Shown piece after piece: positions 127-22,998 of a DNA stretch of 32,575 bases (positions are counted from its first letter, which is position 1; every line of letters starts with the position of its first letter). A program made the position numbers and the translations under genes. The notes beneath the pieces are model-generated. The model did not search any database, was not told where the DNA came from, and was given only the letters and a program-made list of their open reading frames with translations. Source of the stretch: Bacteroidales bacterium. Lineage in GTDB: Bacteria; Bacteroidota; Bacteroidia; Bacteroidales; CAIWKO01. The DNA is taken from contig DAOORA010000054.1 of NCBI GenBank assembly GCA_035389045.1, positions 1 to 32,575 of the forward strand, in the 5' to 3' direction.

Positions 127-3100
127 TTAATATTGTACTATAATATACCCTTTTGCAGGAGCTAAGTCAGCGGTATTGAATTCAAGCACGTAGTAATAGG
201 TACCCGCCTGTACCTTTCCTTTGCCGGCACGTAACATACCGCTGTTGGGAACTCCGTCCCAGGTGTTGTCATATTGTTTCTTCTGGTAGATCAGGTTGCC
301 CCAGCGGTTGAATACTTTAAACTCATTGTCCGGATAGTTTTCAATACCTTTAATGACAAAGAAGTCATTGATACCATCATCGTTGGGTGAGAATCCATCG
401 GGAATATATAATCCTGTCGGTTTCAGCGTAAATGGCGTCGGGTCATTTTCTCCAATTTCATTGGTTATACCGTTTTCGTTAGGATCTATATCTGTTCCAT
501 TATCAGAACTGTCAGTGACGGATAAGCCTAAGGTTCCAATGCCGTTACCAATAGCGGTGTTCAGGTAATGTTCCTGCCAGAGACTATTGGTTCTGACGTT
601 CACGGTAAATTCAATATGGCTTATCTCGCCAACGGCAAGGAAGCTGGAGATTTTAAGGAGGTTAATATTCGAAACGCCGTCATAATTGGTGCTTGCAAGC
701 AGATTACCCGTCGCAACCGGTCCGGAACTGATGCTGAACGTGGCAGGAGCCGGGAATGTCAGCGATAAATCATCAGTCACCTGTACATCATGCAGTACGT
801 CATTACCAATATTTGCGACGGTCATAAAGAACGTGACATTGAATGTTCCATCCTTTTGTTTAATGATTTCAGTTACTTTCTTTGCCAAACCTATGACTGA
901 ATGAGCAGCTTCGGGAAGAACATTGATAATTAATAAGGCATTGTCACAGGCGCCTGCCGCATCACAGATGGTTATGCAAACGGTATCTGTACCGTTCCAG
1001 CCCGGGTTAGGCGTGTAAGTGATGCATACCTCGTTACCGATGACTACAGCTGTGGCCGTACCGTTATTAAAGCAACCTATGCTTGCAAGGCTGAATGGCG
1101 TAGGTCCGTCAATATCAGTGATCGGCAGGCAGACAGTAATGATGCTGTCCTGAGGTATGGTTACGGTGCTGTCATTTACCACGGGCGGATCATTAACCGG
1201 AGTCACGGTAATAATTACAAGTGCTGTATCGCAATATGAAGGAATGCCGGAATCACAGACCTCATAAACTAAAGTATCGGTTCCGTTATAGTTAGGATCA
1301 GGCGTATAGGTAATTTCACCAGTGCCCGGATTGATGGTGATGGTTCCGTTAGAAGGTGTGAAACATGCCGGGCAGAACGTGTTTACGGTTCCCGGATCAA
1401 TGTTATTATCGCAATCCGTATCATTGGCTAATACGTTGATGACAACCGGAAGATCCTCTGGAGTGGTAGCGTGATCAGTATTGGCCACAGGAGGAGAAAT
1501 GATCGTAATATACTGTATACAGGGTATACTTGTATTTCCTGAACCGTCTGTCGCTGTCCATGTTATTGTTGTAATACCTACAGGATAAGGGGCTCCGAGT
1601 GCTAAATTGTCGGAACGGATACCGGTAAAGGTAAGATTTGGTGAACACACATCTATGCCTGTAGGATCAACAATAGGCACCTCGGCATTGCATTGTCCCG
1701 GATCAGTGGTTTGCGTGATATCCGGCGGACATACGATCAACGGAGGTACATTTTCTGTAACCGTGATGGTCTGTATGCAGGGGATGCTGGTATTTCCCGA
1801 AGCGTCAGTTGCAGTCCATGTGATGGTTGTTATACCTACAGGATAATGTTCACTGAGCGCCAGTCCATCGGAACGGATTCCTGTAAAGGTAAGAGTAGTT
1901 GAACAGTTATCCGTCGCGGTCGGATTGATAATGGTAACATAGGCAAAGCATTGTCCCGGAGTGGCTGCCTGAGTGATATTGGCCGGACATGTTATTACAG
2001 GGGGAACATTTTCAGTAACAGTTACCGTCTGTATACAGGGTATGCTTGTGTTGCCCGAACCATCAGCAGCTCTCCATGTAATGGTAGTAACACCTATAGG
2101 ATAGGGAGCGTTTAGTGCTAAAGCATCCGAACGTATTCCTGTGAAAGTGAAAGTGGTAGAACAATTATCCGTAGCTGTAGGATTGATGATCGTTACATTG
2201 GCAAAACAATATCCGGGAATGGCTGTCTGTGTGATATTTGCAGGACAGATGATCACCGGTGGTACAATATCAGTAATGGTAACAGTCTGTATGCAGCTTG
2301 TACTGGTATTCCCGGCGCCATCCGTAGCCGTCCATGTGATAGTAGTAATGCCGACCGGATAAAGAGCATTAAGAGCCAGTCCATCTGAACGTATTCCGGT
2401 GAAACTGAATGTTGTGGAACAGTTATCCGTAGCGGTAGGATAGATGATCTGTACATTCGCATAACACTGACCGGGAACTGCTGTTTGGGTGATATTGGGA
2501 GGACATGTGATGACCGGTACTTGATTATCGTAAACAGTCACAGTTTGTAAACAAGGAATGCTTATATTTCCTGAAGCATCGGCCGCTGTCCATACGATTG
2601 TAGTAATACCCAAGGGATAAGGAGTATTGAGCGCTGCCCCATCGGAACGGATACCTGTAAAGGTAAATGTTGTGGAGCAATTATCCGTTGCTGTAGGATT
2701 GGGTATCTGTACATTAGCATAACACTGTCCGGGTATAGCTGCCTGTGTGATGTTGGCTGGACAGGTAATAACCGGTATCTGGTTGTCAATAACGGTCACG
2801 GTTTGTGTGCATGGAATGCTTGTACTTCCTGATGCGTCAGTAGCCCTCCAGATTATAGTGGTTATACCTACCGGGTAAGGTGCATTGAGTGCCAGCGCAT
2901 CAGAGCGGATACCGGTAAAAGTGAATGTAACCGAGCAATTATCAGTAGCTGTGGGATTGATGATGTTCACGTTGGCTGAACACTGGCCCGGAGCAGCATT
3001 TTGTGTGATATTTGCAGGACAAATGATCACCGGAGGCACATTTTCTGTAATAGTAACAGTCTGTATGCAAGGTATGCTGGTATTTCCCGAAGCATCGGTC

Positions 3101-6100
3101 GCTGTCCATGTAATAGTTGTAACACCTACCGGGTAGGGAGCATTGAGCGCCAGCGCATCCGAACGCACACCGGTGAAAGTGAAAGTTGTGGAGCAGTTAT
3201 CTGTGGCTGTCGGGTTGGTAATGGTAACATAGGCAAAGCATTGACCCGGAATGACAGGCTGTGTGATATTTGCCGGGCATGTAATCACCGGAGGCATATT
3301 TTCCGTAACAGTCACCGTCTGTAAGCAGGCTATGCTGGTATTTCCCGAACCATCAGCAGCTGTCCAGGTAATGGTAGTTACACCAACAGGATAAGGAGCA
3401 TTGAGCGGAAGGGCATCAGAACGTATTCCTGCGAAGGTCAAAGTTGTGGAGCAGTTATCCGTGGCTGTTGGATTGGTTATTGTTACATTAGCGAAACAAT
3501 ATCCGGGGATGGCTGCCTGGGTGATGTTTGCGGGACAAACGATCACCGGCGACACATTATCCGTAATAGTAACGGTTTGGATGCAGGGTATGCTGGTATT
3601 ACCCGAACCATCTGCAGCTGTCCATGTGATTGTAGTAACACCTAAAGGATAAGGTGCATTGAGCGCCAGGGCATCTGAACGCACTCCCGTAAAGGTGAAG
3701 GTTGTGGAGCAATTATCTGTAGCTGTTGGATTGGTGATAGTCACATTTGCATAACAATATCCGGGTATGGCTGCCTGCGTGATATCAGACGGGCAGGTAA
3801 TGACCGGCGGCACATTATCGGTAATGGTTATGGTTTGTATGCAGCTTATGCTGGTATTTCCGGCGCCATCCGTTGCTGTCCATGTGATGGTAGTAACACC
3901 TACCGGGTAAGGAGCATTGAGTGCCAGAGCATCGGAACGTACACCTGTGAAGGTGAATGTTGTTGAGCAATTGTCTGTGGCGGTGGGATTGATTATCTGT
4001 ACATTGGCATAACAGTATCCGGGTATAGCTGCCTGTGTGATGTCAGCAGGACAAGTAATAACTGGTATCTGATTGTCAATAATGATCACAGTCTGTGCGC
4101 AGGGAATGCTTATATTTCCTGAAGCATCGGTGGCCGTCCAGATAATGGTGGTGATTCCAACCGGATAAGGTGCGTTAAGTGGCAGCGCATCGGAACGTAT
4201 GCCGGAAAATGTAAATGTAGTGGAACAAAGATCAAAAGCTGTAGGATCAATAATAGTCACATTGGCCGAACACTGTCCCGGATCGGCATTTTGTGTGATA
4301 TTAGACGGGCAGATGATCACCGGAGGAACATTCTCCGTTACAGTAACAGTTTGTATGCATGGAATGCTGGTATTTCCTGAAGCATCGGTCGCTGTCCAGG
4401 TAATAGTTGTAACACCTACCGGGTAGGGAGCATTAAGCGCCAGGGCATCCGAGCGCACACCGTTGAAAGTGAAGGTTGTAGAACAGTTATCCGTGGCAGT
4501 GGGATTCGTTATGGTTACGTAAGCATAACAATAACCTGGGAAAGCTGTTTGCATGATATTCGCAGGGCAGGTAATCACAGGAGGTACATTTTCCGTTACA
4601 GTCACTGTCTGTATACAAGGCATGCTGGTATTTCCCGAAGCATCACCAGCCGTCCAGGTTATGGTCGTTACACCAATGGGATACGGTGCATTGAGTGGAA
4701 GAGCATCTGAACGAACTCCCGTAAAGGTGAATGTTGTGGAGCAATTATCCGTAGCTGTGGGATCTGTTATCGTTACGTTGGCAAAACAATATCCGGGTAC
4801 AACTGTCTGTGTGATGTCAGCAGGACAAGTAATAACAGGTATCTGATTGTCAATAACTGTCACGGTCTGTGCGCAGGGAATACTTGTATTACCCGAACCA
4901 TCGGCAGCCGTCCATGTAATTGTAGTAACACCTACCGGATAAGGGGCATGGAGCGCCAGTGCATCGGAACGTATACCGGTGAAAGTGAAAGTAGTAGAGC
5001 AATTATCTGTAGCCGTAGGATTGGTGATGGTCACGTTTGCATAACAATATCCGGGTATGGCTGTCTGCGTGATGTCGGGCGGACAAGTGATTACAGGAGC
5101 TACAGTATCCGTGATAGTAACAGTTTGTATGCAGGGTATACTGGTATTTCCGGAAGCATCGGCAGCCGTCCACGTAATTGTAGTAACACCTAACGGATAA
5201 GGGGCATTGAGAGCCAGTGCATCGGAACGTACTCCGGTGAACGTGATTATTGTGGAACAATTATCTGTTGCTGTAGGATTGGTTATCTGTACATTGGCAT
5301 GGCATTGTCCCGGATCAGCAGCCTGCGAAATGTCAGCAGGGCATGTGATTATCGGTGATCCGTATTCTGTGACAGTGATTTTTTGCTCACAGGTTACAAC
5401 TGAACCGTCAAGATAGACCACTGTCCAGGTGACAATGGTTGTACCAACCGGATAAATCCCGCTGGCATCGTTGGTCATAGTGAAAGAATTAGTTATACTC
5501 GCAACACAACCGTTGTTGATTAAAATGTCAGACAACGTATCAATAATTGTGGCAGTGCATAATCCTGAATCTACAGCCTGTGTGAAATCAAGCGGACATA
5601 TAAATACCGGGTTTGGAATAACCGTGAGGGTCATCGTACTGGTTTGGTCAGGACATGGTGCAATTCCTTGCGCAGTTATTGTGAGAGTCACACTTCCTGC
5701 AGTAACATCATCAAGACTGGGAGTATACGTAGGATTGAGATCGATAGGATTGCTGAATACTCCGGTTCCGGTGCTGGTCCATGATATGGCCTGATAATGA
5801 CTGGCCGTGGCGCCATTCAAAGGATAGGCTACTCCCTGGCATGTCTGTGCATCCGGACCTGCATCAGCTGCAGGAGGCTGGTTCACAATGATATGTATAT
5901 AGTCATTGATTGATTCACAAGGGCCACTATATATAACCCAGTTAAAACCGTATTCTCCGGCAGCCAGATTGGAAATGCCAGTAACCGGACTGAGGGAGTC
6001 TGCAATAGAAGCAATTGTTGGCCCAAGTACCTGTTCCCATACTCCGTAACCGTAAGCAGGAATATTTCCTGATACGGTTGTCGAGGTTGTTGTACCTCCA

Positions 6101-8722
6101 CCCAGACAAAGTACCTGGTCAGGTCCTGCATAAGCAGTTGAAGGCAGAGGATAATTGGTAACGGTAATGGTGTCGGTCGTGAAACAATTTACAGTAGTGT
6201 ATAAGGTATATACAAACTGATAAACACCGGGAATCATGCCTCCTATACTGGCATTTGGTGAGTTTGAAGGAAATAATGTCACCACATTGGGACCCGAAAC
6301 CTGTATCCAATTACCTGTAGTTCCGCTTGGTGAATTACCAATAAGGAAGGTATTGCTTTCGTGGCACCATTGCTGATCCGGTCCTGCTTGTGCAATTTGT
6401 GTTTGTATTACATTGAAGAAAACAGTGTCATTCGCACAGGCAGGTGTTAAGGGATAAATATCACAGACCGAAATAATAAACTGATCTGAACCATAATAAC
6501 CAGGATTTGGAGTATAGGTGAATGAGCAGTCATTGCCAATTGTTAAAGTTCCGTGCATTGGTCCTGATACTTGTGGTGTGGAACAATAAATTATCAGGCC
6601 TTCCGGGTCATAATCACCATTGCTTAAAATGTTTCCGGAATAAGTTTCATCCTGGCATAAATTAATATGTTCATTAACAGTAACAGGCGGATCATTATCT
6701 TCAATCGGATAAACTAACAGATATACGGTAGCCAGGTCACATTCCTGGGGTATGCCGTCGTCGCAGANNNNNNNNNNNNNNNNNNNNNNNNNNNNNNNNN
6801 NNNNNNNNNNNNNNNNNNNNNNNNNNNNNNNNNNNNNNNNNNNNNNNNNNNNNNNNNNNNNNNNNNNCGTTTCCGGACACCGGAGTGTTGATGTTGGTGT
6901 TATTGACATCGTTGAGAGCGATGGGCGGGTTGTTTTGTGAAATAATCGTAATATAAACCGTAGCGGTACTGCAATCACTATTGAAATCGCATATTGTATA
7001 AGTGAAACTGTCATTGCCAAAGAATCCTGCATTTGGATTATAGGTAAATGTTCCGTCAGGATTTACGATAACAGTTCCGTTTCCGGGATTAGTATTTGCA
7101 GTGACTAACACCGGTAAATCGCATATCCCAATGTCGTTGACCATAACATTTCCGGACACTGCTGTGTTGAGACTTGTTGTCGCATAGTCGTCTATGGCAA
7201 TAGGAATTCCGTTCACACTGACGGTTTGTTGACATTTCGAAGTGTTACCACATTCATCAGTCGCGGTCCATGTAATAATAGTTATGCCTGTTGTATAAGG
7301 CGGTACGGCATCATTACTGTATGTAACAGCAGAACACTGATCATTTGTTACAGGTGTTCCTAAATCTACTCCTGATGCTGTGCAAAGGCCGGAATCGGCA
7401 TTAACTTGAATATCAGGTGGGCAGGTTATTGTTGGTGGAGTGGTGTCCTGAACTGTAATAACCTGACTGACAGCTTGTGATGTGTTACCGCAATTATCGG
7501 TGGCTATCCATGTTCTTGTAATGCTGTAAGTTCCCGGACATATTCCGGCTATTGCAGCATCAGAAAAGCTGATTACCGGAAAAGGATCATAGTCATCTGT
7601 TACTGTAGGGGCAATGAAATTTGGAATAGCGGGGCAGTCAATGGTTGCATTGTTTCCCTGGCCTGATAAAACGGGTGCAAAATTATCCCGGGCGACAATG
7701 GTTACGTTTGCTGCAGCAGTGCAATTACTGGAATCTGTAACCGTAACACTGTATGTTCCGGCAGGCAACCCGGTAATCGAAGCACTGGTCTGCGCCGGTA
7801 TGGTATTCCATAAATAAGAAAAGGGAGGTGTTCCTCCTGTCACCGTCACCGTGGCGGTTCCGGTAGAATCACCCAAGCAATCTATATCCTCCTTTGCTAT
7901 TGTGGCAGTAAACGGTTGAAGGACTCCAAGACTTACACTGTCAACACCGATACAGGAGATAGCATCTGTAACAGTGATTATGTATGTCCCGGGAGCAGTA
8001 AACGGATTAACAACAGGATCTTCTATGTTTGAGGTATAACCTCCCGGGCCGCTCCAGGTATATGTTAAAGTAGAATTGCATCCATTGTTTGATGTGCCGG
8101 TTGAAAAAAGGTAAAGATTGGCGAGGTCACATGAAAGGCTATGAGAGGCTGTAACGTCAGGATTAATATTTATTGGATCACCTATGTTATCTATATACGT
8201 TTCACCCCATAAAGTCTGAAATGAATTATCAAATGTCAATCCAATAGGATTGGGATCGGGTGTAGGAGATGGGGATGGGGAATTATTCTCAAACATCCTC
8301 ATTCCGCTTGGGCAAACCGTGTTAGGTAAACTAAAAGTAAATAAAACTATATCGGAGCCTGCAACCAGCCCGGGAATAAATTCTGATCCGTTAGTGGCAA
8401 ATTTGTGATAGTCTTTTAATCCGCCAGGAGTCAGAATGTTATATACAGGAGTGTTGTCACTCCATCCTGCACCGGCAGGATTCACCGTTGTGACAGACGT
8501 TATCGGCACATCGGGAAATGATGCGGGAACCACAACACAGAAACCTGAGGGTCCTAAGTAATTATCAAAAATATCTACTATCCCGCCGACATGCAGGTGT
8601 GCTTCATATAAACAACTCACCGGATTGTACCTTATTTCAAATGTCGATTGCATTGAGCTTTGTGCTCTCAAAAAAGGTAGTAATGCAAAAACGAAAATCA
8701 GTGTTACTATTAATTTTTTCAT
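127..8722 (-). CDS. Giant T9SS-secreted adhesin-like protein with type-B (gliding motility-associated) CTD; one gene split into two ORF-track entries by the N gap
   Basis: ORF 6737..8722 supplies a signal peptide (MKKLIV...LRA-Q), an N-terminal beta-sandwich, SprB-like, HYR-like and Ig/Big_9-like domains up to the gap. ORF 127..7032 supplies, after the gap, Big_9/PKD-like domains, 15 HYR-like repeats, a DUF11-like domain and the CTD IPDGFSPNDDGINDFF...FNRWGNLIY...WDG...GTYYYVL...KGYIIVQY. The frame change is explained by the 100-N placeholder. Confidence 0.88.
1498..5367 (-). repeat. Intragenic tandem array of 15 x 258 bp (86 aa) HYR-like domains
   Basis: The DNCS-encoding anchor recurs at 1643, 1901, 2159 ... 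4997, 5255, exactly every 258 bp. Consensus PPVITCPANITQ..PG.C.ANVTI.NPTATDNCSTTFTFTG.RSDALALNAPYPVG.TTITWTA.D.SGNTSIPC.QTVT, with four Cys per unit. Confidence 0.95.
6768..6867. other. Scaffold gap (100 N, true size unknown)
   Basis: Run of exactly 100 N inside a repetitive coding region. Confidence 0.98.
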
Positions 8723-8803
8723 AATGGATAACTTTAGATGTTGTTATTAAACCGAATATTTTTAATCAAATATTATTTTTTATTTAGTTCTTCTGATTCA
8801 TTT

Positions 8804-11800
8804 TTAATAAGGTAATTGTTCAAATAGTACATTGAAATTGTAGTTGTGTGTCGGGTTGAGCGGGTAAGTCAGCACATTCTGGAAAATCAGATAGTAGTCA
8901 TCACCAGGCGCCTGAAATTTTACTTTTCCACTGAGGTCAGCATCTCCGGCAAAATAACCCAGAGCAAAATCAAAGTTATAATTTATGGGCACATTTGTGG
9001 GATAAGTGAGTACATTATAAAATATGGTGAACAAATCATCACCAGGTGCGCGGTACTTGATTTTCCTGTCCCTGTTAACATCTCCGGCCCACAAAGCCTT
9101 GGCCCCATCGGTCATGGTTTTCTGGGACAATCCTGTATAATTAAATGATGGTCCTGCAACAGGATGTGAGGTGCCAAAATTAAACTCCGGTTCGCTTCCG
9201 TCGGTGAAATTAACAAGTGTTCCTGCGGGTGTCAGTGTTTTGACATTGGCTGTCATGACTCCAAAGTGGTTACGATGACGTACAACCACATAATAGTTGA
9301 CATCATCCAAACCTGTGAAACATACAGGGCTTATGCCATCAATATCTACAACATTACCGTCGCGCTGTAACAGGGCTGAACGGGTATATTTTACATTTAT
9401 ATTGTTGTTTTTATCCCGAAGTTCAATGAAAACCCAATCAACGATGGCATTGGGGCCTGTTACTCCCAGAACTGTTGCGGAATCTGTAATTTGTTCTCCG
9501 CCACCGCCGCCATGATGCATGAATGTGGTATTATATGGTGCTGATGAATAGGGCTCTTTAACCGGAATAAACCCATGAACCCTCAGGGAGTCGGCCATCA
9601 GATGGTTTGTAGTTTTATAGGATCCCTGGAGAAATACCTTTACCATCAGACATCCTGAGTTGATATTGGGTGAGACAAGAATATAAACCGTAGCAGAGTC
9701 ACATTCCTGGGGCGTGCCATCGTCACAAACCTCATATACGAAATGATCCGGTCCTGTGTAATTCAGATCAGGTGTATACGTAAAGGTGCCGTCAGCATTC
9801 AGTATAACACTGCCGTGCAATGGATCAGTAAGCGGAGCGGTGTTCACGTTCTGGTTGTCTCCCTGAGGATCATAATCATTATCAAGCACATTGCCTGTGA
9901 CAGGTACATCCTGATTGGTGAAATATGAATCATCATGGGCAAACGTAGAATTCCCGTCATCGTTGGTCATAATATCAATCGTTACCATGGCAGTATCGCA
10001 TAGTGAAGGGATGCCAAGGTCGCAGATCTGATAGTCGAAGGTCACCTGTCCGGTAAATCCGATGACCGGAGTGAATTGGAAACTGCCATCGCTGTTAAGG
10101 ATGAGGTTGCCATTTCCGGGAGCAGGACCTATAAGAACAACACTGTTGGCATTTAGGTTGCCGTCGGGGTCGCTGTCGTTGGAAATAACGGTACCCACGA
10201 CAGGTGTATTGATACTGCCCTGGTATGCATCATTGATAGCAATGGGCGGATTATTAGCCGTATCCGGCCTGGTTACTGTAATAGTGACTAATGCTGTATC
10301 GCACAACGGGGGAATCACGTCGTCGCATACTTCGTAAACATAAGTATCTGTTCCTGTAAATCCGTTGTTTGGTACATAGGTATAAGAGCCGTTGGGGTAA
10401 ATAGTTACAGTGCCATTTACCGGTTGCGTCAAAGGAGTGGTATTGATGACAAGGTTATCCCCGTCGGGTTCATTGTCATTTGTGAGCATATTGCCTGTTA
10501 CAGGAGTATTGATAAGCGTGTTGTTGATATCATTTATCGCTACGGGAGGATTATTATATGGGAATATGAGGATATACACAGTAGCGGAATCACATTCCTG
10601 GGGTGTGCCGTCGTCACAGACTTCATAAACGAAATTATCCGGCCCGGTGTAGTTGGGATCAGGGGTGTAAAGAAACGTACCATCATCATTTAGTGTAAGT
10701 GTTCCATGCATCGGATTCTTGAGCGGAGTAATGTTCACCGTCTGGTTATCGCCCTGCGGGTCGTAATCGTTGTCACTGACATTTGCCGATACGGGTGTGT
10801 TAATATTGGTGAAATAGGCATCATCATGAGCAAACGTTGAGTTCCCGTCAAAATTCGTCTGTATATCAATAGTTACCAAAGCAGTGTCACAAAGTGGCGG
10901 TAGAGCCAGATCACATATCTGGTAATAAAATGATACCTGTCCGGTGAAATTGTTGTCCGGAACAAATTCGAAAGTACCGTCGGTGTTAAGCACCAGTACT
11001 CCGTCTCCCGGGGATGGTCCTACGAGTATCACACTATTGGGATTGAGGTTGCCGTCGGGATCACTGTCGTTAGTGATGACAGTTCCGGTGACAAGGGTAT
11101 TTATACTGCCCTGGTATGCGTCGTTGATAGCAACAGGAGGCTGGTTGAAGTTGCCTGGTTTTTTAACAGTGATGGTAACAATGGCCGTATCGCAAAGAGC
11201 GGGTATAATATCATCGCATACTTCATAGGTATAAACATCGATGCCTGTAAATCCGTTATTGGGAATATAAACATAAGAGCCGTCAGGATATATGGTCACT
11301 ATGCCATTTGACGGGTTAGCCAATGGAGTGGTGTTGATGACGAGATTATCACCATCGGGCTCATTGTCATTGGTGAGCATATTGCCTGCCACAGGGGTGT
11401 TGATCAACGTACTGTTGATATCATTTATCGCTACAGGAGGATTGTTATGAGGTAATACGAGAATATACACAGTAGCCTGGTCACATTCCATCGGGTTGCC
11501 GTCATCACAAACCTCATAAATAAAATTATCAGGTCCTGTGTAATTCAAATCAGGTACATAAGTGAATGTACCGTCATCAATAAGTAATACTGAGCCATGC
11601 ATAGGATCGGCTATCGGAAGAGCATTCACAGTCTGGTTGTCTCCCTGGGGATCATAGTCATTGTCACTGACATTTCCTGAAACAGCCGTGTTTTCATTGG
11701 TGATATAGGAATCATCATGTGCAAATGTGGAATTTCCATCCTGGTTGGTCATGATATCTATCGTTACCGTAGCCGTATCACATAAGGAAGGATTACCCAG

Positions 11801-14800
11801 GTCACAGATTTGATAGTCATAGGTTACCTGTCCGGTAAATCCGTTGGCTGGCACAAAATTGAAGGTTCCGTTTGAATTGAGAACCAGCGTCCCGTTTCCG
11901 GGAGCGGGTCCTATAAGAATTACACTGTTGGGATCAAGGTTCCCGTCAGGATCACTGTCATTGATAATAACTGTTCCGGTAACCATGGTGTTGATGCTGC
12001 CCTGATAGGCATCGTTAATGGCGATAGGCGGCTGGTTGCCAATAATTTGTTCCGTTACGGTGATGGTTACGATGGCTGTGTCGCATAACGGTGGGATAAT
12101 ATCATCACATACTTCGTACACATAAGAGTCTGTTCCGGTGAATCCGGTATTCGGAATGTAAGTGTAAGAGCCGTCTGAATATATGATCACATTTCCGTTA
12201 GCCGGATTACTCAACGGTGTGGTATTGATGACGAGGTTGTCGCCGTCTGGTTCATTGTCGTTGGTGAGCATATTTCCTGATACGGGTGTATTGAGCAGAG
12301 TTGTGTTGATATCATTGATAGCAACCGGTGGGTTGTTGTACGGTAGTACAAGTATATATGCTGTGGCTGAATCACATTCCATCGGTATGCCATCATCACA
12401 TAATTCATAAATGAAGTTGTCTGGTCCTGTGTAGTCGGTAAAAGGAATGTAATCAAATGTACCATCAGAGTTAAGTGTTAGTGTGCCATGCATTGGACCT
12501 GAAAGAGGAACAGTGTCAACGGTCTGGGCATCACCCTGCGGATCATAATCGTTGTCAAGCACATTGCCTGAAACAGGGGTGTTTTTATTGGTCATGTATG
12601 AATCATCATGTGCAAATGTTGAATTTCCGTCATCATTAGGCATGATATCTATGGTTACAGTAGCAGTGTCACACAGCGCCGGCGCGCCAAGATCGCAAAT
12701 CTGATAATTGTATGCGACCTGGCCTACAAAGCCATTGGCAGGAATGAATTCAAAGGTTCCGTTGGCATTAAGAACAAGAATACCATTACCCGGGGCCGGT
12801 CCGATCAGGATCACACTGTTATAATTGAGGTTGCCGTCAGGGTCGCTGTCGTTTGTGATGACCGTACCGCTAACCATAGTATTGATACTTCCCTGGTAAG
12901 CGTCATTAATTGCAATCGGCGGTTGATTGTAGTCGCCTGGTTCGGTAACAGTTATTGTCACAACAGCAGTATCGCAGAGCACCGGAATACCGTCATCGCA
13001 TACTTCATATATATAAGTATCTGTTCCCAGGAATCCGGTGACAGGGACATAGACATACGAGCCGTCCGGGTAAATGACCACGTTGCCATTGGATGGTGGT
13101 GTCAGGGGGGTAACATTAATAATAAGGTTGTCACCATCAGGTTCATTATCATTTGTGAGCATATTCCCTGATACGGGGGTGTTTATAAGAGTGGCGTTAA
13201 TATCATTGATGGCCACAGGCGGATGGTTTTCAGGAAGTACTATAATGGTAAGCAATCCCTGATCACATAAATTTGAAGGATCACAAACTTCGTATGCCAA
13301 TGAAATGGTATCTGAAAAACCAATTGGCGGTGTATAAGTAAAATTCCCCGATGTGTCAAAAACGATGATACCCTGGCCGGGTAGCGGATTATCTAAAAGT
13401 TCAAATTCAAGTTCCGCTAGGGTATTGTCAGGATCAGAATCATTAGGTGCGACTGAGCCCGTCACGGGTGTATTATAAAAAGTGGTATAAAAATCATCAA
13501 CAGCTACCGGTGGCAGACAACTCGGGGGTATTCCTACCGGACCGGAATCAGTGGCGGTACAGCCATTGATGTCTGTGACCGTTACAATGTAAATGCCTAC
13601 ATCCAGGCCGCTGATATTGGCAGTGGTAGCACTGTTCGACCAGAGGTAGGTATAAGGCCCTGTTCCTCCTGTCACAACGGCATAGGCTTCTCCATTGGCA
13701 AATGAACAACTTCTGTCGTATGTTAATACATCCACGGTTAAATCCGGTGATTTATCTATAAAAATGCCGGACAATGTGTCTGAGCATCCGGTGAAGTCAG
13801 TAACAATAACGATGTATGTACCTGTATCCAGACCAACAGGATCCTGAATATTTCCTATCGGAGTTGGGCCAGTCCAAAGGTAATTGAACGGTGGTACCCC
13901 GTTTACAACAGTAAGGTCAATTTTACCTGTTGCATTACTGCACGCGGAAGATGGAGTGACATCGGCATATAATTCCATTTGAAAACCAGGCTGGGTAATG
14001 GAATAATCATATTTTGCAGTACAGAGGTGGACATCGGTCACACTGACCGTGTAGGATCCTGCCGGAACATTATTCAGATCTTCGGTGACAGCGCCATTCG
14101 ACCAAATAAAGGAATATAAAGGCGTGCCACCACTGATGGTCAGGTCAATATTCCCGTCATTTCCTCCGAAACATCCTACATTTTGAATGTCGGCTGTGGC
14201 TGAAAACGGCAAAGGTTCTGTGATGCCGGTTGATAGCGTGTCTGTGCAAAGGTTCGCATCAGTGACTATGACGGAATATGTACCGGCAGTCAGGCCAAAA
14301 ATATCCTCTGTTATTTCTGCATTATCCCATAAATACGTATAGGGTAAGGTACCCCCTGTGACGATCAGGTTGATGCCTCCGTCGCTGCCGCCGTTACACA
14401 AAACATTGGAATTGACCGTTGACAGCGATATGGCTGAAAGTTGGGTAATGTCAAAACTTTTAGTTGCATGGCAATTGATTGAATCGGAAACGGTAACGTA
14501 ATATGTCGCTGCTGTGAGACCGGTTCTGTTCTCATCTGTGGATCCATCAGCCCATGAATACGTATAAGGCCCTGTGCCTCCTGCAACATTAAGATCAATG
14601 GCACCGGTGTGGGTGCCGCTGCACAATATATTGGTCACAAAGGCTGAGATATATATAGCTTCAGGTTGATTCACCGTAGTTGTGGCATATGCAGTACATC
14701 CACTGCTGTCAGTAACCGTTACTGAATAAAGCCCCGCAGGAACATTCAGAAGGTCTTCCGTAACTGCACTGTTTGACCAATTATATGCGTATATTGGCGT

Positions 14801-17800
14801 TCCGCCGGTAACAGTCAGGTCAACGATTCCCGTTGAATCTCCATAGCAACCGGCATTTGTTGGTGATGCTGTTGCAACCAGTTCACCGGGTTGTGTCATC
14901 TGGACAGAAGCCGTGGCCGTGCATCCTTTGGCATCAGTAACCAGGACATTATAGGTTCCTGCTGTTATTCCCGAAATATTCATGGTACTGGCTCCGTTTG
15001 ACCAGTCATAAGTATATCCTGCTGTGCCGCCGGTTACTGTTAAGCCGATACTACCGTTGCTGTTTCCAAAACATGAGATCTTTGATGTGATGTTTGCATT
15101 GACAACTAGTGAATCAGGCTGGCTGACTGTTACAGTGCTCAGGATAAAGGTACATCCCTCGTCGTCCGTCACCGTAACACTGTATGTTCCGGAAACAAGG
15201 TTGTTGACATCTTTGGTATAGGCTGTAAAACTGTTAGGACCTGACCAGGAATAGGAATAAGGAGTTGTACCGCCGTTTACTGTAAGGATAATCTGGCCGT
15301 CAGAACCACCGTTGCAGCTGACAGGGGTAACAACGGTGCTGGCTGTCAGAGATGATACAGATGTTACATTGACACTTAGTGTGTCCGTGCAATTATGAGC
15401 ATCCGTAACCGTAACACGGTATAGTCCGGCATTCAATCCCGAGATATCTTCTGTTGATGCGCCATTACTCCAAGAATAGGAATAAGGTGTTGTTCCTCCT
15501 GATACGATCAGGTTTATACTACCTGTTCCACCGGTACAGAGGATATCTATATGCGTTTGATCCAAAATAATATCCAGGGGTTGTGTCACATCTGCAGATG
15601 TAGCGCCCTTGCAACCATTGATATCGCTGACAGCTACGTGGTAGGTACCTTCACCAACTCCGTATATGTTCTGGGAAGTGGCGCCATTAGACCATAAATA
15701 GGTATAAGGCGGTGTCCCTGATGAGGTGTTTATTTCAACTGCGCCATCAATGCCGCCAAAACAATTTACGTTGGTGATCGTCTGGGCAATCACCAGCGGG
15801 CCTCCGGCATCGCTCACCGAAGCTGTAGTTTTAGCGGTGCATCCGTTGTCATCCGTGATGGTAACGGTGTAACTTCCTGCCGGCAGATTAGCAATATCTT
15901 CCGTACCGGCGCCATTGCTCCACTGGTACGTAAATGGCGGTGTGCCGGTGCCGGGTGTAATATCAATAGCTCCGTTTGCGGATAAACATATTGAACTGGT
16001 GACACTGGATGTCATTGTGGGCGTCGGGTTCACAAAAACAGGAACAGTATCTGTTGCACTACATCCTCCTGTTACGGATACCGTTACAATATAATTGCCG
16101 TTATGCAACGCTGCATCTGCATTATAAATAACCGGGTTCTGGCATGACGACGTACATCCGTGAGGCCCCGTCCATGAGTAAGTGTCTCCGCCACTCGCAA
16201 ACAACTGGAATGACGTTCCGGAACACACATTGCTTGAATATGCATTTGGTGTCAGTGTAGTTACGATTACAGTTTCGCACTTTGGCGACGTTGCTCCGCA
16301 AACATTATGAGCTACTACACACACATCATACGGACCGATCGGAACATTGTTCCAGTTAACGGTTATGGAGTGTGTGGAATCTCCTGAAACAATGGCATTG
16401 TTGTAAAATGTGCCCGGATATAATATGGATTCAATGGTCCAGGTGTAATATAAATTCTCTGGTTTGGGTTCAGTAGAAAATAAACTTGCGGTGTCAGACT
16501 GACATACTCCTGTTCCGGAGCAACCCACAGGAGCATTTAAAACAATGGTTCCTGAAGTGATGGCACAACCAATGGAATCCGAAACGGTTACCGAATAACT
16601 ACCGGCGTAAAGATCTGTCCTGTCTTTCGGATCATTCGATCCTGTTATATCGCTCCAGTCATAAGTATAGGGTGGCGTTCCACCTGTTACATCAAGCGTG
16701 ATGCTACCGAGCGAAAGGCAGGTAGGTTGTACCACTGTCGGCGTAAGTGTAATAATTCCAACTCCGGATTGGTTTATGGTGACCGGCGTGGCAAGCATGA
16801 CAGGCCCGCAATTGCCGGCATCATTCACATAAAGAGTGTATGTTCCCGGGGCAAGTCCGGAAAAAGTACCCGACGCCTGAAAATTAATTCCGTCAATGCT
16901 ATAGGTATAGGGCATTGTGCCGCCATTGCCTGCGACGGTGATGCTTCCGGTGTTCTGGCCACCACAGCTCACATCTGTTTTGGAAACAAATGAAATTCCC
17001 AGGGCAGCAGCAGGTTCCGTCACCACTACGGTATTGGTTTTTTTTGTGCAGAGATCATCTTTGACAGTGACTGAATACGTACCCGGACCTGCTGAAAAAG
17101 TGTTGTTTGTCTGGAACGGGCCGTTATTAAGGCTGAACTGCAACGTGCCTGTGCCACCGCTGGCAGTGACAGTCAATGTAGAGCTGTCACCAAGGCAAAG
17201 AATAGGATTGGGACTGGCTGCAAGGCTGGCACTAATAACCGGATTATATAAAATGGTAAAACTGTTGGTCGGGCTATAACAACTATTGACCGGATCTTCA
17301 AATGCTACGTAATATATTCCGGCATAAACCGTTGATGGATCGGGGATTTTATTCAGGACAGATGCTGGCGTTCCCGTATGCCAGGTGACATTAGCGCCTG
17401 AGGGTTTGTTGCATGGATTTAATGCCGTCAGATCAAATGTTGAACCCGAACATATATAATAGGTCTTTGCAATGGTGTTTTGAGGGGTCACGGTTACAAT
17501 GGACGTATTGTTACCCGCATTATCATCAGGCTCAGCGCCGCTGATCACAGCGGTATTGGCATAATTCTGACTGCATGATACAAGAGCAGTTATGGTCAGG
17601 GCTGCATTGATTTGATTGTTTAAACTGCCGATGTTCCATACGCCGGTAGTGCTGTTGTATGTTCCTGTGGTGGTTGAGTGAGATAAATAGGTGAAACCAT
17701 TCGGAAGCATATCGTTCACTAAAACGGAGGTAGCATTACTTGGACCGTTGTTATTCACATTTATTGAAAATGTTATACTGTCCCCGATGACGGGTGACAG

Positions 17801-18565
17801 GTTACCGGCAGTTTTTTGAACAGCCAGGTCGCAAACCTGGGTGGGTTTAATTGAAATTCCGCTCATCGACCAGTGGTCTTTATTCAGCAACCAGGCCAGT
17901 GTAGTGGTAGCGGAACCCTTTTTAGTACATCCTCCTCCGGTATTTTCTTTGGGTGTATTTACATTCCATTGTTGTGTCTGTGATGAAAGACAACTGATAT
18001 TCTGGTTATGAACAGAAACGACATTAAAAACGAGTTCGCTGCTGGCCGAAGAAACATTCAGGGAGGCAGTCACGCTTTCTCCCGAACTTGATGCATAGGC
18101 ACCCAGCGGTGTCGTCTGATTCACACCGGTGAAGGTCATGACGCCGGCAACGGCTCCTTTTCCGAGGGCGCCGTTACAGGTGACTACCACATTGTGGGCT
18201 CCGCTGGAAGGTGCAACCATGTAATAAATAAATGTTTTGGCTTCTCCTAAGGATGTTTGTTGGCCTGCCAGAGTCAGCGGGGTGCCGTCATAGGTGACAG
18301 AGGTGACAGCTTTGTCCCTGGTGGATATGCCAACCAACAACAGCCTGTCTGCGGCAGTGGTTGTTGTATGGGCTACTGTAATAGTAGTTCCTGCTACTGC
18401 CGATCCGTACGTTGTTGCATCAGCAGTTACCTGGGCTGATAATTTCAAAGCAGGCATACCAACTAACAACAGGCATATGATCAAGGTGTTGAAGCGAAGC
18501 CACGATAATTTAACGGGCTGCTTGCCTCTGGCATTTTGCGCATTGGTGCGGAGTATATTTTTCAT
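8804..18565 (-). CDS. Giant secreted adhesin-like protein (3253 aa): N-terminal head domain, DUF11, about 14 SprB-type repeats, 13 Big_9/cadherin-like Ig domains, C-terminal dockerin-like region; no recognisable T9SS CTD
   Basis: Extended signal peptide ending LSA-Q45. DUF11 motif DLAVQKT..N.SP.IGD.ITF.I.V.NNGPS.AT.V.V.D.LP.G. SprB-type repeats C.G..DG.I.L.V.GGT.PY.Y.WSNG....D...L.AG.Y.V.VTD..C. Ig repeats PPVAIND...N...ND.DPDG...G...DG.F.Y.P..GF.G.D...Y.VCD. C-terminus with duplicated GD.(N/D)...K.K..APGDD motifs. Confidence 0.93.
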   Translation of the reverse strand: MKNILRTNAQNARGKQPVKLSWLRFNTLIICLLLVGMPALKLSAQVTADATTYGSAVAGTTITVAHTTTTAADRLLLVGISTRDKAVTSVTYDGTPLTLAGQQTSLGEAKTFIYYMVAPSSGAHNVVVTCNGALGKGAVAGVMTFTGVNQTTPLGAYASSSGESVTASLNVSSASSELVFNVVSVHNQNISCLSSQTQQWNVNTPKENTGGGCTKKGSATTTLAWLLNKDHWSMSGISIKPTQVCDLAVQKTAGNLSPVIGDSITFSINVNNNGPSNATSVLVNDMLPNGFTYLSHSTTTGTYNSTTGVWNIGSLNNQINAALTITALVSCSQNYANTAVISGAEPDDNAGNNTSIVTVTPQNTIAKTYYICSGSTFDLTALNPCNKPSGANVTWHTGTPASVLNKIPDPSTVYAGIYYVAFEDPVNSCYSPTNSFTILYNPVISASLAASPNPILCLGDSSTLTVTASGGTGTLQFSLNNGPFQTNNTFSAGPGTYSVTVKDDLCTKKTNTVVVTEPAAALGISFVSKTDVSCGGQNTGSITVAGNGGTMPYTYSIDGINFQASGTFSGLAPGTYTLYVNDAGNCGPVMLATPVTINQSGVGIITLTPTVVQPTCLSLGSITLDVTGGTPPYTYDWSDITGSNDPKDRTDLYAGSYSVTVSDSIGCAITSGTIVLNAPVGCSGTGVCQSDTASLFSTEPKPENLYYTWTIESILYPGTFYNNAIVSGDSTHSITVNWNNVPIGPYDVCVVAHNVCGATSPKCETVIVTTLTPNAYSSNVCSGTSFQLFASGGDTYSWTGPHGCTSSCQNPVIYNADAALHNGNYIVTVSVTGGCSATDTVPVFVNPTPTMTSSVTSSICLSANGAIDITPGTGTPPFTYQWSNGAGTEDIANLPAGSYTVTITDDNGCTAKTTASVSDAGGPLVIAQTITNVNCFGGIDGAVEINTSSGTPPYTYLWSNGATSQNIYGVGEGTYHVAVSDINGCKGATSADVTQPLDIILDQTHIDILCTGGTGSINLIVSGGTTPYSYSWSNGASTEDISGLNAGLYRVTVTDAHNCTDTLSVNVTSVSSLTASTVVTPVSCNGGSDGQIILTVNGGTTPYSYSWSGPNSFTAYTKDVNNLVSGTYSVTVTDDEGCTFILSTVTVSQPDSLVVNANITSKISCFGNSNGSIGLTVTGGTAGYTYDWSNGASTMNISGITAGTYNVLVTDAKGCTATASVQMTQPGELVATASPTNAGCYGDSTGIVDLTVTGGTPIYAYNWSNSAVTEDLLNVPAGLYSVTVTDSSGCTAYATTTVNQPEAIYISAFVTNILCSGTHTGAIDLNVAGGTGPYTYSWADGSTDENRTGLTAATYYVTVSDSINCHATKSFDITQLSAISLSTVNSNVLCNGGSDGGINLIVTGGTLPYTYLWDNAEITEDIFGLTAGTYSVIVTDANLCTDTLSTGITEPLPFSATADIQNVGCFGGNDGNIDLTISGGTPLYSFIWSNGAVTEDLNNVPAGSYTVSVTDVHLCTAKYDYSITQPGFQMELYADVTPSSACSNATGKIDLTVVNGVPPFNYLWTGPTPIGNIQDPVGLDTGTYIVIVTDFTGCSDTLSGIFIDKSPDLTVDVLTYDRSCSFANGEAYAVVTGGTGPYTYLWSNSATTANISGLDVGIYIVTVTDINGCTATDSGPVGIPPSCLPPVAVDDFYTTFYNTPVTGSVAPNDSDPDNTLAELEFELLDNPLPGQGIIVFDTSGNFTYTPPIGFSDTISLAYEVCDPSNLCDQGLLTIIVLPENHPPVAINDINATLINTPVSGNMLTNDNEPDGDNLIINVTPLTPPSNGNVVIYPDGSYVYVPVTGFLGTDTYIYEVCDDGIPVLCDTAVVTITVTEPGDYNQPPIAINDAYQGSINTMVSGTVITNDSDPDGNLNYNSVILIGPAPGNGILVLNANGTFEFIPANGFVGQVAYNYQICDLGAPALCDTATVTIDIMPNDDGNSTFAHDDSYMTNKNTPVSGNVLDNDYDPQGDAQTVDTVPLSGPMHGTLTLNSDGTFDYIPFTDYTGPDNFIYELCDDGIPMECDSATAYILVLPYNNPPVAINDINTTLLNTPVSGNMLTNDNEPDGDNLVINTTPLSNPANGNVIIYSDGSYTYIPNTGFTGTDSYVYEVCDDIIPPLCDTAIVTITVTEQIIGNQPPIAINDAYQGSINTMVTGTVIINDSDPDGNLDPNSVILIGPAPGNGTLVLNSNGTFNFVPANGFTGQVTYDYQICDLGNPSLCDTATVTIDIMTNQDGNSTFAHDDSYITNENTAVSGNVSDNDYDPQGDNQTVNALPIADPMHGSVLLIDDGTFTYVPDLNYTGPDNFIYEVCDDGNPMECDQATVYILVLPHNNPPVAINDINSTLINTPVAGNMLTNDNEPDGDNLVINTTPLANPSNGIVTIYPDGSYVYIPNNGFTGIDVYTYEVCDDIIPALCDTAIVTITVKKPGNFNQPPVAINDAYQGSINTLVTGTVITNDSDPDGNLNPNSVILVGPSPGDGVLVLNTDGTFEFVPDNNFTGQVSFYYQICDLALPPLCDTALVTIDIQTNFDGNSTFAHDDAYFTNINTPVSANVSDNDYDPQGDNQTVNITPLKNPMHGTLTLNDDGTFLYTPDPNYTGPDNFVYEVCDDGTPQECDSATVYILIFPYNNPPVAINDINNTLINTPVTGNMLTNDNEPDGDNLVINTTPLTQPVNGTVTIYPNGSYTYVPNNGFTGTDTYVYEVCDDVIPPLCDTALVTITVTRPDTANNPPIAINDAYQGSINTPVVGTVISNDSDPDGNLNANSVVLIGPAPGNGNLILNSDGSFQFTPVIGFTGQVTFDYQICDLGIPSLCDTAMVTIDIMTNDDGNSTFAHDDSYFTNQDVPVTGNVLDNDYDPQGDNQNVNTAPLTDPLHGSVILNADGTFTYTPDLNYTGPDHFVYEVCDDGTPQECDSATVYILVSPNINSGCLMVKVFLQGSYKTTNHLMADSLRVHGFIPVKEPYSSAPYNTTFMHHGGGGGEQITDSATVLGVTGPNAIVDWVFIELRDKNNNINVKYTRSALLQRDGNVVDIDGISPVCFTGLDDVNYYVVVRHRNHFGVMTANVKTLTPAGTLVNFTDGSEPEFNFGTSHPVAGPSFNYTGLSQKTMTDGAKALWAGDVNRDRKIKYRAPGDDLFTIFYNVLTYPTNVPINYNFDFALGYFAGDADLSGKVKFQAPGDDYYLIFQNVLTYPLNPTHNYNFNVLFEQLPY
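9665..13228 (-). repeat. Intragenic array of 4 x 891 bp (297 aa), each unit a triplet of distinct Big_9-like domains (A-B-C)
   Basis: Anchor acattcc at 9701, 10592, 11483 and 12374, spaced 891 bp apart. A starts PPVAINDIN.TLINTP, B starts PP.AINDAYQGSINT, C starts GNSTFAHDD.Y.TN. Confidence 0.95.
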
Positions 18566-22558: not shown

Positions 22559-22744
22559 ATTTATTACTGTTTTATTATTCTGATTTTTAATAATTGACTA
22601 TATTTTTTTATGTGTTTCAATTTTATTAATAACATTTGATTTTTATTTAGAATAATTCAGGGTAAATTTTAATTGGAAGGATAACTATATAGGTGTATAT
22701 GAAATGTTGCTTTTTCAAAACAGGACATTTAATATTATGTACAT

Positions 22745-22790
22745 CAAAGTTAATACAAAATTAATTTATAGTTGTTAAAATAGTGTTAAA
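22745..22790 (-). promoter_or_regulatory. Candidate promoter of the adhesin operon: Bacteroidota -7 boxes plus an 11-bp-phased direct repeat
   Basis: Minus-strand TAACTTTG (22752..22745) and TAATTTTG (22763..22756) match TAnnTTTG. TTTAACA occurs twice (22790..22784 and 22779..22773) near where a -33 TTTG would be expected. Confidence 0.5.
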
Positions 22791-22944
22791 TTTAAACTTT
22801 ATTAAATAATGTTGCTAAAAAATGAATTTTCATCTATAAAATATGATCTTATGACGACATAATACAAATAAATGAAGATGTAAATTTTTACATTTTTTTA
22901 GAAAAATTTATCTGCCTCAATTAGGCTAAGAATTCAATCATAAA

Positions 22945-22954
22945 TAACTTTGCA
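22945..22954 (+). promoter_or_regulatory. Candidate plus-strand -7 promoter box with no annotated downstream plus-strand gene
   Basis: TAACTTTGCA matches TAnnTTTG(C). The background is AT-rich, so a chance match is possible. Confidence 0.35.
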
Positions 22955-22978
22955 GAATGCATTTATAATTGCTTGGAA

Positions 22979-22998
22979 TTGAATAATTAATTATTCAA
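22979..22998. promoter_or_regulatory. Perfect 20-bp palindrome, possible transcription factor operator
   Basis: TTGAATAATT|AATTATTCAA is its own reverse complement. Confidence 0.45.

Follow-up and report, generated by a model that had tools for sequence, protein, structure and literature searches.

How a giant adhesin-like protein is held on the cell when it ends without a known sorting domain is the question raised by two genes in the stretch of Bacteroidales DNA analysed here (the window, 32,575 nucleotides). We propose that they probably belong to a new docking system, similar to that of cohesins and dockerins, in which adhesins without a sorting domain are tethered to T9SS-anchored partners. 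The two genes and their joint are laid out as follows:

8804..18565, minus strand: gene A, 3253 aa, secreted and adhesin-like, with a signal peptide at the N-terminus
8723..8803, minus strand: A/T-rich spacer of 81 nt, from the gene A stop to the gene B start
127..8722, minus strand: gene B, a single long gene of at least about 2,860 aa
136..405, minus strand: T9SS type B sorting domain of gene B (CHU_C / TIGR04131), located by profile matches

The gene A product contains DUF11, 14 SprB repeats and 13 tandem-95/Big_9/cadherin-like repeats (Pfam and NCBIfam), followed by a C-terminal module (C-module). Neither Pfam nor NCBIfam finds a T9SS sorting domain at its end; weak Por_Secre_tail signals are internal, inside the SprB region, and not terminal. 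Gene B comprises a signal peptide, an N-terminal domain (N-domain), SprB, 15 HYR and Big_9 repeats and a sorting domain matched by CHU_C (94.4 bits, cut-off 27; residues 2210–2299 of 2301) and by TIGR04131 (51.1 bits, cut-off 35), which makes it a T9SS type B substrate. As only B carries a sorting domain, A would be attached to the cell by way of B. A sequence-only reading of the window had recognised the 3253-aa protein and the gene directly following it, and both are found as described; gene B is corrected here from a 661-aa protein to one long gene, the reading of which is broken by 100 N at 6768–6867. A scan of the spacer for terminators and sigma-70-type promoters, in which Bacteroidota promoters are not represented, revealed no terminator-like site and no promoter. 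The A–B junction is preserved in orthologous form in a relative (G016). A paralogous fragment is present upstream.

The C-module, our candidate plug, divides into three parts:

8807..9655, minus strand: C-module, residues 2971–3253 (283 aa), an XDoc-like dyad that closes the protein with ..EQLPY
9095..9655, minus strand: X-like β-sandwich half of the C-module (VKVFLQGSY...DWVFIELRD...LLQRDG...VRHRNH)
8957..9094, minus strand: dockerin-like repeat 1, residues 3158–3203; loop D3162-x-N-x-D...D3177, then helix
8819..8956, minus strand: dockerin-like repeat 2, residues 3204–3249; loop D3208-x-D-x-S...D3223, then helix

The terminal module of about 280 aa picked out by the sequence-only reading is thus 283 aa long, and its motifs IVDWVFIELRD, ALLQRDG and VRHRNH were all located, with VKVFLQGSY at residue 2975 (window 9643). 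The 46-aa (138-bp) duplication described for its end also held: the last 92 aa repeat at an offset of 46 aa in exact register, 23 of 46 aa and 75 of 138 nt are identical between the copies, and both copies are found in all 26 homologues (alignment A2). The AF2 model of the module supports the Asp-rich loop and helix claimed for each copy, with helices at module residues 207–216 and 253–262, 46 apart. The 26 sequences never vary at G191, D238 and D253, and conservation is at least 90% at W189 and D207. The X-like half is also found alone in other proteins.

The earlier description of this end as dockerin-like stands in structure but not in sequence. In structure comparison, the C-module resembles, over all 283 aa, a dyad of an X-module and a type II dockerin, and the structure it matches best is that of a protein-docking module. 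It has the tandem duplication of an Asp/Asn-rich loop and helix typical of dockerins, and its β-sandwich packs against the dockerin-like part as in XDoc. By contrast, every dockerin-family sequence test failed: a six-frame PF00404 scan of the source genome (G000) gave 42 dockerin matches, none of them on the contig carrying the C-module (C54), and hhalign returned a probability of 0.3% when alignment A2 was compared with 17 dockerins from that genome. The C-terminal 298 aa of gene A match no Pfam family at E ≤ 0.1 and no NCBIfam model, including TIGR04183, TIGR04131 and NF033708, and a PDB profile search with the module gave no match.

This fold is widespread and C-terminal. An exhaustive search of representative clusters at 50% identity found 8,685 with a C-module at E ≤ 1e-3 and 1,403 at 1e-30. 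Among the 150 matches listed, 147 end no more than 10 residues from the protein end, in proteins of 196–7457 aa. In 76 loci picked by the presence of a C-module, the module lies within 22 residues of the ORF end in 99 of 102 C-module ORFs; the three internal modules are followed by Asp-rich thrombospondin-like repeats.

The proposed receptor of the C-module is the first domain of gene B:

8663..8722, minus strand: signal peptide, MKKLIVTLIFVFALLPFLRA, followed by Q at the inferred cleavage site
8198..8662, minus strand: N-domain, β-rich, about 130 aa (profile match 8225–8650) plus a conserved Pro-rich tail

The β-rich domain with G.DIVLFTFSL that had been noted after the signal peptide is indeed present, as GSDIVLFTFSL, and LF.F is the most strongly conserved motif of the family (over 50 sequences, F108 never varies and L107 reaches at least 90% conservation). 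It matches nothing in Pfam or NCBIfam and, judged by profile comparison, is a member of a divergent superfamily. Its assignment as a cohesin was not borne out. No member of the 50-sequence family matches Cohesin (PF00963) at E ≤ 1; with 21 canonical cohesins from the same phylum as targets, hhalign returns probabilities of 1.65% (N-domain alignment A3) and 0.15% (A7); and a PDB profile search found no match and no cohesin. Cohesins fold as a nine-stranded β-sandwich (jelly-roll). The AF2 model of the N-domain, built from 7 close sequences, has a pLDDT of 43. For the homologue P0010, the matches of the Atlas model all have TM < 0.5 and are dominated by the sorting domain, which also dominates the ESM Atlas neighbours of P0006 and P0010. 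The label ‘cohesin’ is thus unproven for this domain. Atlas clusters of about 245–270 aa that combine a cohesin with Por_Secre_tail have an architecture like that of the small anchors described below (score 0.84, a lead only).

Sockets of this family are homologous to one another and accompany plugs in a conserved arrangement. Within the 76 loci, tblastn with the gene B N-domain gave 11 matches at 28–35% identity, most of them just downstream of a C-module, and the next gene opens with an N-domain in 45 of 98 testable C-module ORFs using iterated profiles, or 52 of 98 using a broadened profile. The N-domain occurs almost exclusively in one of two settings: right downstream of genes ending in a C-module, or in N-terminal position in proteins which themselves end in one. 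Nineteen ORFs hold both modules, the N-domain at the N-terminus and the C-module at the C-terminus, and some ORFs hold two or three N-domain copies; no ORF was found in which a C-module is fused to an N-domain behind it. The start of the domain lies 22–67 residues past a Met in 64 of the 65 N-domain ORFs.

The same holds in other genome sets. In five whole genomes (G459–G463), all 16 N-domain matches fall within the loci of 10 full C-modules, and every C-module is followed by an N-domain after a gap of 93–177 nt. A phylum-wide sample searched with profile A3 has the N-domain in 2 of 401 genomes (G000 and G262), beside C-modules in both. Of the 11 C-module ORFs in nine additional genomes, 9 directly precede a gene whose secreted product opens with a divergent domain, one precedes a second C-module gene, and one precedes neither; hhalign shows this divergent class and the N-domain to be homologous (probability 94.7%, E 6e-8). 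The sequence-only reading held that its proposed joint would fall if the two domains did not co-occur. This is the case in four relatives from the same genus, in which the N-domain is present and the C-module was not found, but is contradicted on the wider scale. A reading of no co-occurrence from a single-sequence N-domain search of 60 relatives, which gave matches in the same genus only, was discarded, as profiles later showed the family to be very divergent.

Chains of such genes end in small proteins consisting of a signal peptide, an N-domain and a T9SS sorting domain, without adhesin repeats; their position behind C-module genes is kept in several families. Among 34 ORFs with an N-domain only, the type A sorting domain scores above the cut-off in 14 and below it in 5, two have type B, two CVP-CTERM and 11 nothing. 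In partners of the divergent class, type A is above the cut-off in 13 of 14.

Because the tail of gene A is plug-like and the N-domain accompanies such plugs across many Bacteroidota, we propose an end-to-end joining system that is undescribed in the full-text literature and review covered (subscription journals lay outside that scope). On balance we favour the reading that the C-module docks into the N-domain of gene B and links the two proteins tail to head. The plug would be the last 283 residues of gene A, a β-sandwich packed on two 46-residue loop–helix repeats, and the matching socket the first domain of gene B, right behind the signal peptide. The exported gene A protein would thereby be tethered to the cell through its C-terminus, held in the N-terminal, cell-distal tip of the gene B protein, and together the two would span about 6,100 residues as one fibre. 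Elsewhere in the Bacteroidota, the same two modules may join proteins tail to head along the order of their genes (..C → N..C → N..C → N-CTD), with the small chain-end proteins (a signal peptide, an N-domain and a type A T9SS sorting domain) as surface anchors. We infer that plug and socket bind physically, that calcium is required and that the chain ends anchor. A bolder version, which we regard as rather unlikely, is a piggyback T9SS device, in which adhesins without a sorting domain dock in the periplasm on an N-domain partner, cross the translocon with it and stay tethered at the surface, so that a whole chain in gene order would need a single sorting domain.

Complex prediction of the C-module with the N-domain, in a job that included two Ca and left small molecules unscored, gave a score of 0.32 (runs 0.32, 0.35 and 0.15), with 0.00 for the best of three controls. 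Partner pLDDT is 77–81, the range in which the job folded the N-domain, and at least 90% of contacts are common to the runs. Of 157 solved complexes, 116 reach the mark for this score, as do 2 of 215 mismatched pairs, and scores up to 0.60 comprise only 18 of the 157 solved complexes, plus both mismatched pairs past the mark. The predicted model thus lends weak support to the pairing. The end-to-end joint put forward by the sequence-only reading is backed by gene order and architecture strongly conserved across Bacteroidota families, and weakly by complex prediction (0.32 versus 0.00).

Could the arrangement exist without a stoichiometric dock? The C-module may itself be a sorting, secretion or surface-attachment signal (a further type of C-terminal signal, or a lectin-like module that attaches to LPS or glycan), with the N-domain protein as a helper such as a dedicated chaperone, shuttle or processing partner. 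We consider this unlikely, as the T9SS type A, B and C models are all unmatched, in structure it comes closest to a protein-docking module, and a helper fails to explain either the double-ended proteins or the ORFs with two or three N-domains. Adjacency might also reflect mere tandem duplication and shuffling of adhesin genes within one operon, the modules being end-caps that are frequent in a single adhesin family and never touch. The repeat types common to the neighbours (SprB, tandem-95 and DUF11) and the paralogous fragment upstream agree with such a history, as do the intercorrelated distance matrices of all modules, which shared descent would produce. It is nevertheless a distinctly unlikely account, given that small anchors without adhesin repeats hold their place behind C-module genes in several families, that the N-domain is confined to C-module loci in the five whole genomes and that the complex score exceeds all controls.

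Two further possibilities retain docking but change the partner, and we judge both highly improbable. One is that the C-module docks on canonical Pfam cohesins encoded at other sites of the genome. In structure the plug is dockerin-like, and with at least 9 cohesin and 42 dockerin matches in its genome the source organism does have a cohesin network; however, in G262 and in the genomes sampled from family f43 (such as G099, G254 and G325) C-modules are present and no canonical cohesin was found at E ≤ 1e-5, synteny with cohesin genes was not seen in the examined loci, and the C-module profile is dissimilar to the genome’s own dockerins. The other is binding to the N-domain of the same protein or of identical copies, as homopolymeric head-to-tail fibres or an intramolecular clasp, for which the 19 ORFs with both modules provide the parts. 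A Mantel co-variation test (17 triples) did not discriminate: the dockerin part correlates with the protein’s own N-domain (r = 0.65) nearly as well as with the downstream one (r = 0.71), and the X part gives r = 0.58 and 0.55, respectively. Yet many chain-first genes have a C-module only and many chain-last genes an N-domain only, and self-binding is inapplicable to gene A, which has no N-domain of this family, the sole copy in the source genome being that of gene B.

If docking of the C-module into the N-domain holds, it would explain the surface display of giant Bacteroidota adhesins without a T9SS sorting domain, through an assembly logic of C-terminal plug, N-terminal sockets and chain-end anchor, with the order encoded in the operon. 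Confirmed binding would give a function to a very large unannotated family (8,685 clusters at 50% identity) that has no sequence relative in Pfam, NCBIfam or PDB. Small proteins with a socket and a sorting domain, together with their cognate plugs, might serve as orthogonal surface-display parts.

One of the closest known systems is the type II cohesin–XDoc complex of clostridial cellulosomes (for example, PDB 2b59, 3kcp, 5g5d and 4u3s). The C-module is arranged like the XDoc dyad that anchors clostridial scaffoldins; however, it shares no sequence similarity with it, measures 283 residues compared with about 156 and contains large insertions. Dockerin repeats are units of about 22 aa with a loop of about 12 residues, whereas the unit here is 46 aa and the loop, from the first Asp to the helix-start Asp, spans 16. 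Clostridial XDoc systems use SLH modules as anchors; those proposed here are T9SS sorting domains in a Gram-negative phylum, the cargo consists of adhesin-like repeats instead of enzymes and, unlike the partner of XDoc, that proposed for gene A is not recognisable as a cohesin. The cohesin–dockerin-like assembly logic would then extend beyond cellulosomes, with a socket not recognisable as a cohesin. Canonical PF00404 dockerins and PF00963 cohesins, often with a T9SS sorting domain, occur in the same phylum (cohesin in 102 of 401 sampled genomes) and in the same genome, but the C-module, unlike them, escapes PF00404 even in six frames. T9SS sorting domains (TIGR04183, TIGR04131 and NF033708) are likewise obligatorily C-terminal on large secreted Bacteroidota proteins, and types A, B and C have a β-sandwich component in common with the C-module. 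The C-module is about three times larger, carries the loop–helix duplication and matches none of the three models; the true T9SS sorting domains sit on the gene neighbours of C-module proteins.

The adhesin-like genes of the window, which is a complete contig (C54) of a 4.46 Mb genome (G000, 96% complete), are four in number and run head to tail, all on the minus strand:

19817–22558, minus strand, SprB-repeat protein of 913 aa
18604–19773, minus strand, 389-aa protein with a signal peptide, a ~200-aa N-terminal domain and DUF11
8804–18565, minus strand, gene A, 3253 aa, with a signal peptide, DUF11, 14 SprB repeats and 13 Big_9/cadherin-like/tandem-95 repeats
127–8722, minus strand, gene B, with SprB, 15 HYR and Big_9 repeats and a C-terminal T9SS type B sorting domain

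The sorting domain of gene B is well defined (CHU_C, 94.4 bits; TIGR04131, 51.1 bits), and the only reason the gene is split into two ORFs is a run of 100 Ns (6768–6867) inside one tandem-95 repeat, on either side of which the reading frames differ; the run is either a gap in the assembly or sequence that was withheld. Pfam and NCBIfam place no sorting domain at the end of gene A. No Pfam family matches the last 298 residues of A or the first 191 of B at E ≤ 0.1; in NCBIfam, the former have zero matches and the latter a single insignificant one, over the signal peptide (E 0.063, 12.5 bits). No terminator-like site was found between the two genes. Over 351 aa, the 389-aa ORF shares 42% identity with the initial ~360 residues of gene A, and it stops after DUF11 without a sorting domain or C-terminal module; it may be a truncated paralogue of gene A or a separate small protein. 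Elsewhere in the window, a stretch of low G+C (0.344 at 22001–24000, against 0.41–0.48 elsewhere) separates the adhesin cluster from an M48 peptidase gene, and two adjacent minus-strand ORFs of 343 and 342 aa (25960–26991 and 27015–28043) match nothing in Pfam or NCBIfam; their neighbours are LemA, M48 peptidase and zinc-ribbon genes.

The C-module of gene A (the plug) starts with VKVFLQGSY at residue 2975 and contains a 46-residue duplication (3158–3203 and 3204–3249; 23/46 residues and 75/138 nucleotides identical). The sequence-only reading had described this Asp-rich duplicated module and a G.DIVLFTFSL motif in the next gene; all of these features are present, the motif as GSDIVLFTFSL, and 81 nt separate the stop of A from the start of B. 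Searched exhaustively with HMMER, 1.84 billion representative proteins yielded 8,685 C-module clusters at E ≤ 1e-3 and 1,403 at 1e-30. Among the matches listed, in a table read by eye, 147 of 150 have their best stretch reaching to within 10 residues of the protein end, and the carriers range from 196 to 7457 aa. Named members are nearly all 'hypothetical protein' (one is a 'hemagglutinin protein') from Saprospiraceae, Chitinophaga-type and other Bacteroidota MAGs, and for none of them does a precomputed Pfam domain cover the module. A one-genome-per-species scan confirmed at least 596 such stretches, in Saprospiraceae, Chitinophagaceae, Spirosomataceae, Flavobacteriales and Lentimicrobiaceae.

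Both loop–helix repeats are found in all 26 members of the C-module alignment (A2), where G191, D238 and D253 never vary and conservation of W189 and D207 is at least 90%. AlphaFold2 modelling on this alignment gives a beta-sandwich and, after it, two helices spaced 46 residues apart (pLDDT 91.6, pTM 0.90), bearing out the dockerin-like shape proposed earlier for the end of A. Sequence comparison with dockerins is negative: contig C54 is absent among the 42 canonical PF00404 matches in G000, hhalign of A2 against 17 of these dockerins gives a probability of 0.3%, and the profile has zero matches in the PDB. Given a dockerin-like fold and no sequence link, the C-module is dockerin-like in architecture, and membership of the dockerin family is not demonstrable. 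The X-like beta-sandwich half (DWVFVELR...RHRNH) also occurs without the loop–helix repeats in many more ORFs of the phylum sample (for example, in G226, G187 and G351); in all, 50 of 401 sampled genomes give a match at E ≤ 1e-10, and most matches stop where the first loop begins. In three ORFs (L116:2-12703, L119:2-12760 and L083:2-1921) the C-module is internal, the terminal EQLP is missing and Asp-rich thrombospondin type 3-like repeats come next.

The beta-rich N-domain of gene B (the socket) had tentatively been read as a cohesin, an identity that we reject at the sequence level. Pfam Cohesin matches 0 of 50 family members at E ≤ 1, a PDB profile search found no cohesin, and hhalign against 21 canonical cohesins of the same phylum gives probabilities of 1.65% for the family profile (A3) and 0.15% for the profile of a divergent class (A7). 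G000 itself encodes 42 canonical Pfam dockerin and at least nine canonical cohesin matches, some side by side in one ORF, all on contigs other than C54 (for example, C51:29047-29649). As these are plentiful, the plug–socket pair is a separate system beside the classical network. Canonical cohesins were not found in four genomes with C-modules (G262, G099, G254 and G325), which argues against canonical cohesins as a required partner.

Close relatives of the N-domain are few. A word-based search found only six (57–73% identity), all T9SS type A proteins of 340–940 aa in which the domain comes straight after the signal peptide; scanning 60 related genomes with the single sequence recovered it from five species, all of the same genus. 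Profile A2 detects a full C-module in G000, G016, G003, G004 and G053; in G002, G008, G009 and G013 the N-domain is present and no full C-module was found, and we count these sockets without a detected plug against docking. None of the seven N-domain genes with enough flank in these genomes comes after a C-module gene, and the orthologous A–B junction is kept in G016 only. Taken alone, the same-genus evidence would have returned a negative answer to the co-occurrence test suggested with the sequence-only reading. Three of the N-domain proteins (P0005, P0007 and P0008; 868–940 aa) contain an internal stretch (..DPSRNFS..YKKAANVDNN..IN.IDI.RIK.KI..) that, by eye, seems to resemble closely the long-type canonical dockerins of G000 (alignment A6), with a cohesin-looking stretch after it.

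Across the phylum the two modules often adjoin. The N-domain of the window, searched by tblastn against 76 loci collected through the C-module, gave 11 matches (28–35% identity) in Spirosoma, Fibrella, Haliscomenobacter, Lacihabitans, Emticicia, a Flavobacterium, Saprospiraceae and Lentimicrobiaceae, most of them starting 140–250 nt past the stop of the C-module gene. Iterated profiles raised this to 65 ORFs, in 64 of which the domain starts 22–67 residues after a Met. These loci hold 102 C-module ORFs, and 19 ORFs carry both modules, with the N-domain first and the C-module last. A same-strand downstream gene starting with the N-domain follows 45 of the 98 C-module ORFs with enough sequence, or 52 with a broadened profile. 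Some ORFs contain two or three N-domains, and one locus (L077) encodes a C-module protein, a protein with both modules, a protein with three N-domains and a C-module, and an N-only protein of 318 aa, in that order.

Because the 76 loci were ascertained through the C-module, five whole genomes (G459–G463) were scanned. All 16 N-domain matches lie within loci of the 10 full-length C-modules, each of which is followed by an N-domain 93–177 nt later. Each of the five genomes had been selected for one locus where the adjacency was known, which leaves as independent observations the remaining five junctions and the lack of the domain in the rest of these genomes. Profile A3, run on 401 genomes sampled evenly over the phylum, found the N-domain in two (G000 and G262), both times adjoining a C-module, and many more of the sampled genomes carry C-modules. 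Nine of these, with 11 C-module ORFs, were taken for neighbour analysis: nine ORFs are followed by a secreted-protein gene with a different-looking N-terminal beta domain (gap −40 to 115 nt); of the other two, one precedes another C-module gene and one precedes neither kind. This divergent class aligns with the N-domain family at a profile–profile probability of 94.7% (E 6e-8, 112 columns), and by this sequence measure the two are homologous. The sockets form a large superfamily that diverges fast, and this is why single-sequence queries recover so few of them. Co-occurrence holds on the scale of the phylum but not in the four same-genus genomes. Also counted against docking are the plugs, about half of all, that lack a neighbouring socket gene, the existence of stand-alone plugs, and a co-variation test between the modules that gave no discrimination.

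Being at the very C terminus, the C-module prevents its carriers from also holding a C-terminal sorting domain; such domains are found where the chains end. Thirty-four of the 35 N-only ORFs with an intact 3' end were screened for such domains: a T9SS type A domain is present above the NCBIfam cut-off in 14 and below it in 5, type B in 2 and CVP-CTERM in 2, and 11 have nothing. Among divergent-class partners, 13 of 14 carry type A above the cut-off. The commonest terminal protein (~270–390 aa) consists of a signal peptide, the N-domain, a short linker and a sorting domain. Spirosomataceae also encode ~190-aa N-only proteins (L051:10876-11436, L056:4528-5127, L057:10909-11469 and L069:3617-4180) with a conserved Cys-containing tail (..NYANTGT.C..CN.TAP.LSK) and no known sorting domain, their genes placed between a C-module gene and a ~280-aa N-domain protein with a sorting-domain-like C terminus.

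We predicted the complex from the two window domains, supplying two Ca and the domains' own alignments. It scored 0.32 (runs 0.32, 0.35 and 0.15) against 0.00 for the best of three controls, graded as weak support, with a partner pLDDT of 77–81 and at least 90% of contacts agreeing between runs. Calibration, which holds only roughly here because custom alignments and a small molecule went in, puts 116 of 157 solved complexes at or above the pass mark, along with 2 of 215 mismatched pairs; scores of ≤0.60 comprise only 18 of those 157 complexes and both passing mismatches, and by the method's own account a pass at such a score is more likely to be false than true unless there was good prior reason to expect the pairing. 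Since the genomic evidence makes this pairing likely beforehand, we count the prediction as mildly favouring it.

The proposal that a dockerin–cohesin joint links neighbouring giant proteins end to end is partly supported: the dockerin-like shape stands, the conserved plug-then-socket order and, weakly, the complex prediction point to a functional joint, and the cohesin label falls. The pair, widespread and unannotated, is probably an assembly of the cohesin–dockerin type. We infer that the plug would dock into the socket of the protein encoded next, its two Asp-rich loops probably binding calcium, and would tether proteins without a sorting domain to T9SS-anchored ones; gene A would be mounted at the N-terminal tip of gene B, distal to the cell, the two totalling about 6,100 residues. 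In the boldest reading, a protein without a sorting domain might cross the outer membrane by co-secretion with its partner. Searches of the openly available literature, among it passages of the review PMC9251779, gave no account of this pair of modules or of piggyback transport through T9SS.

The nearest parallel is the clostridial scaffoldin, whose C-terminal XDoc attaches to the type II cohesins with which the anchoring protein begins. The clostridial anchoring protein is encoded next to the scaffoldin gene.
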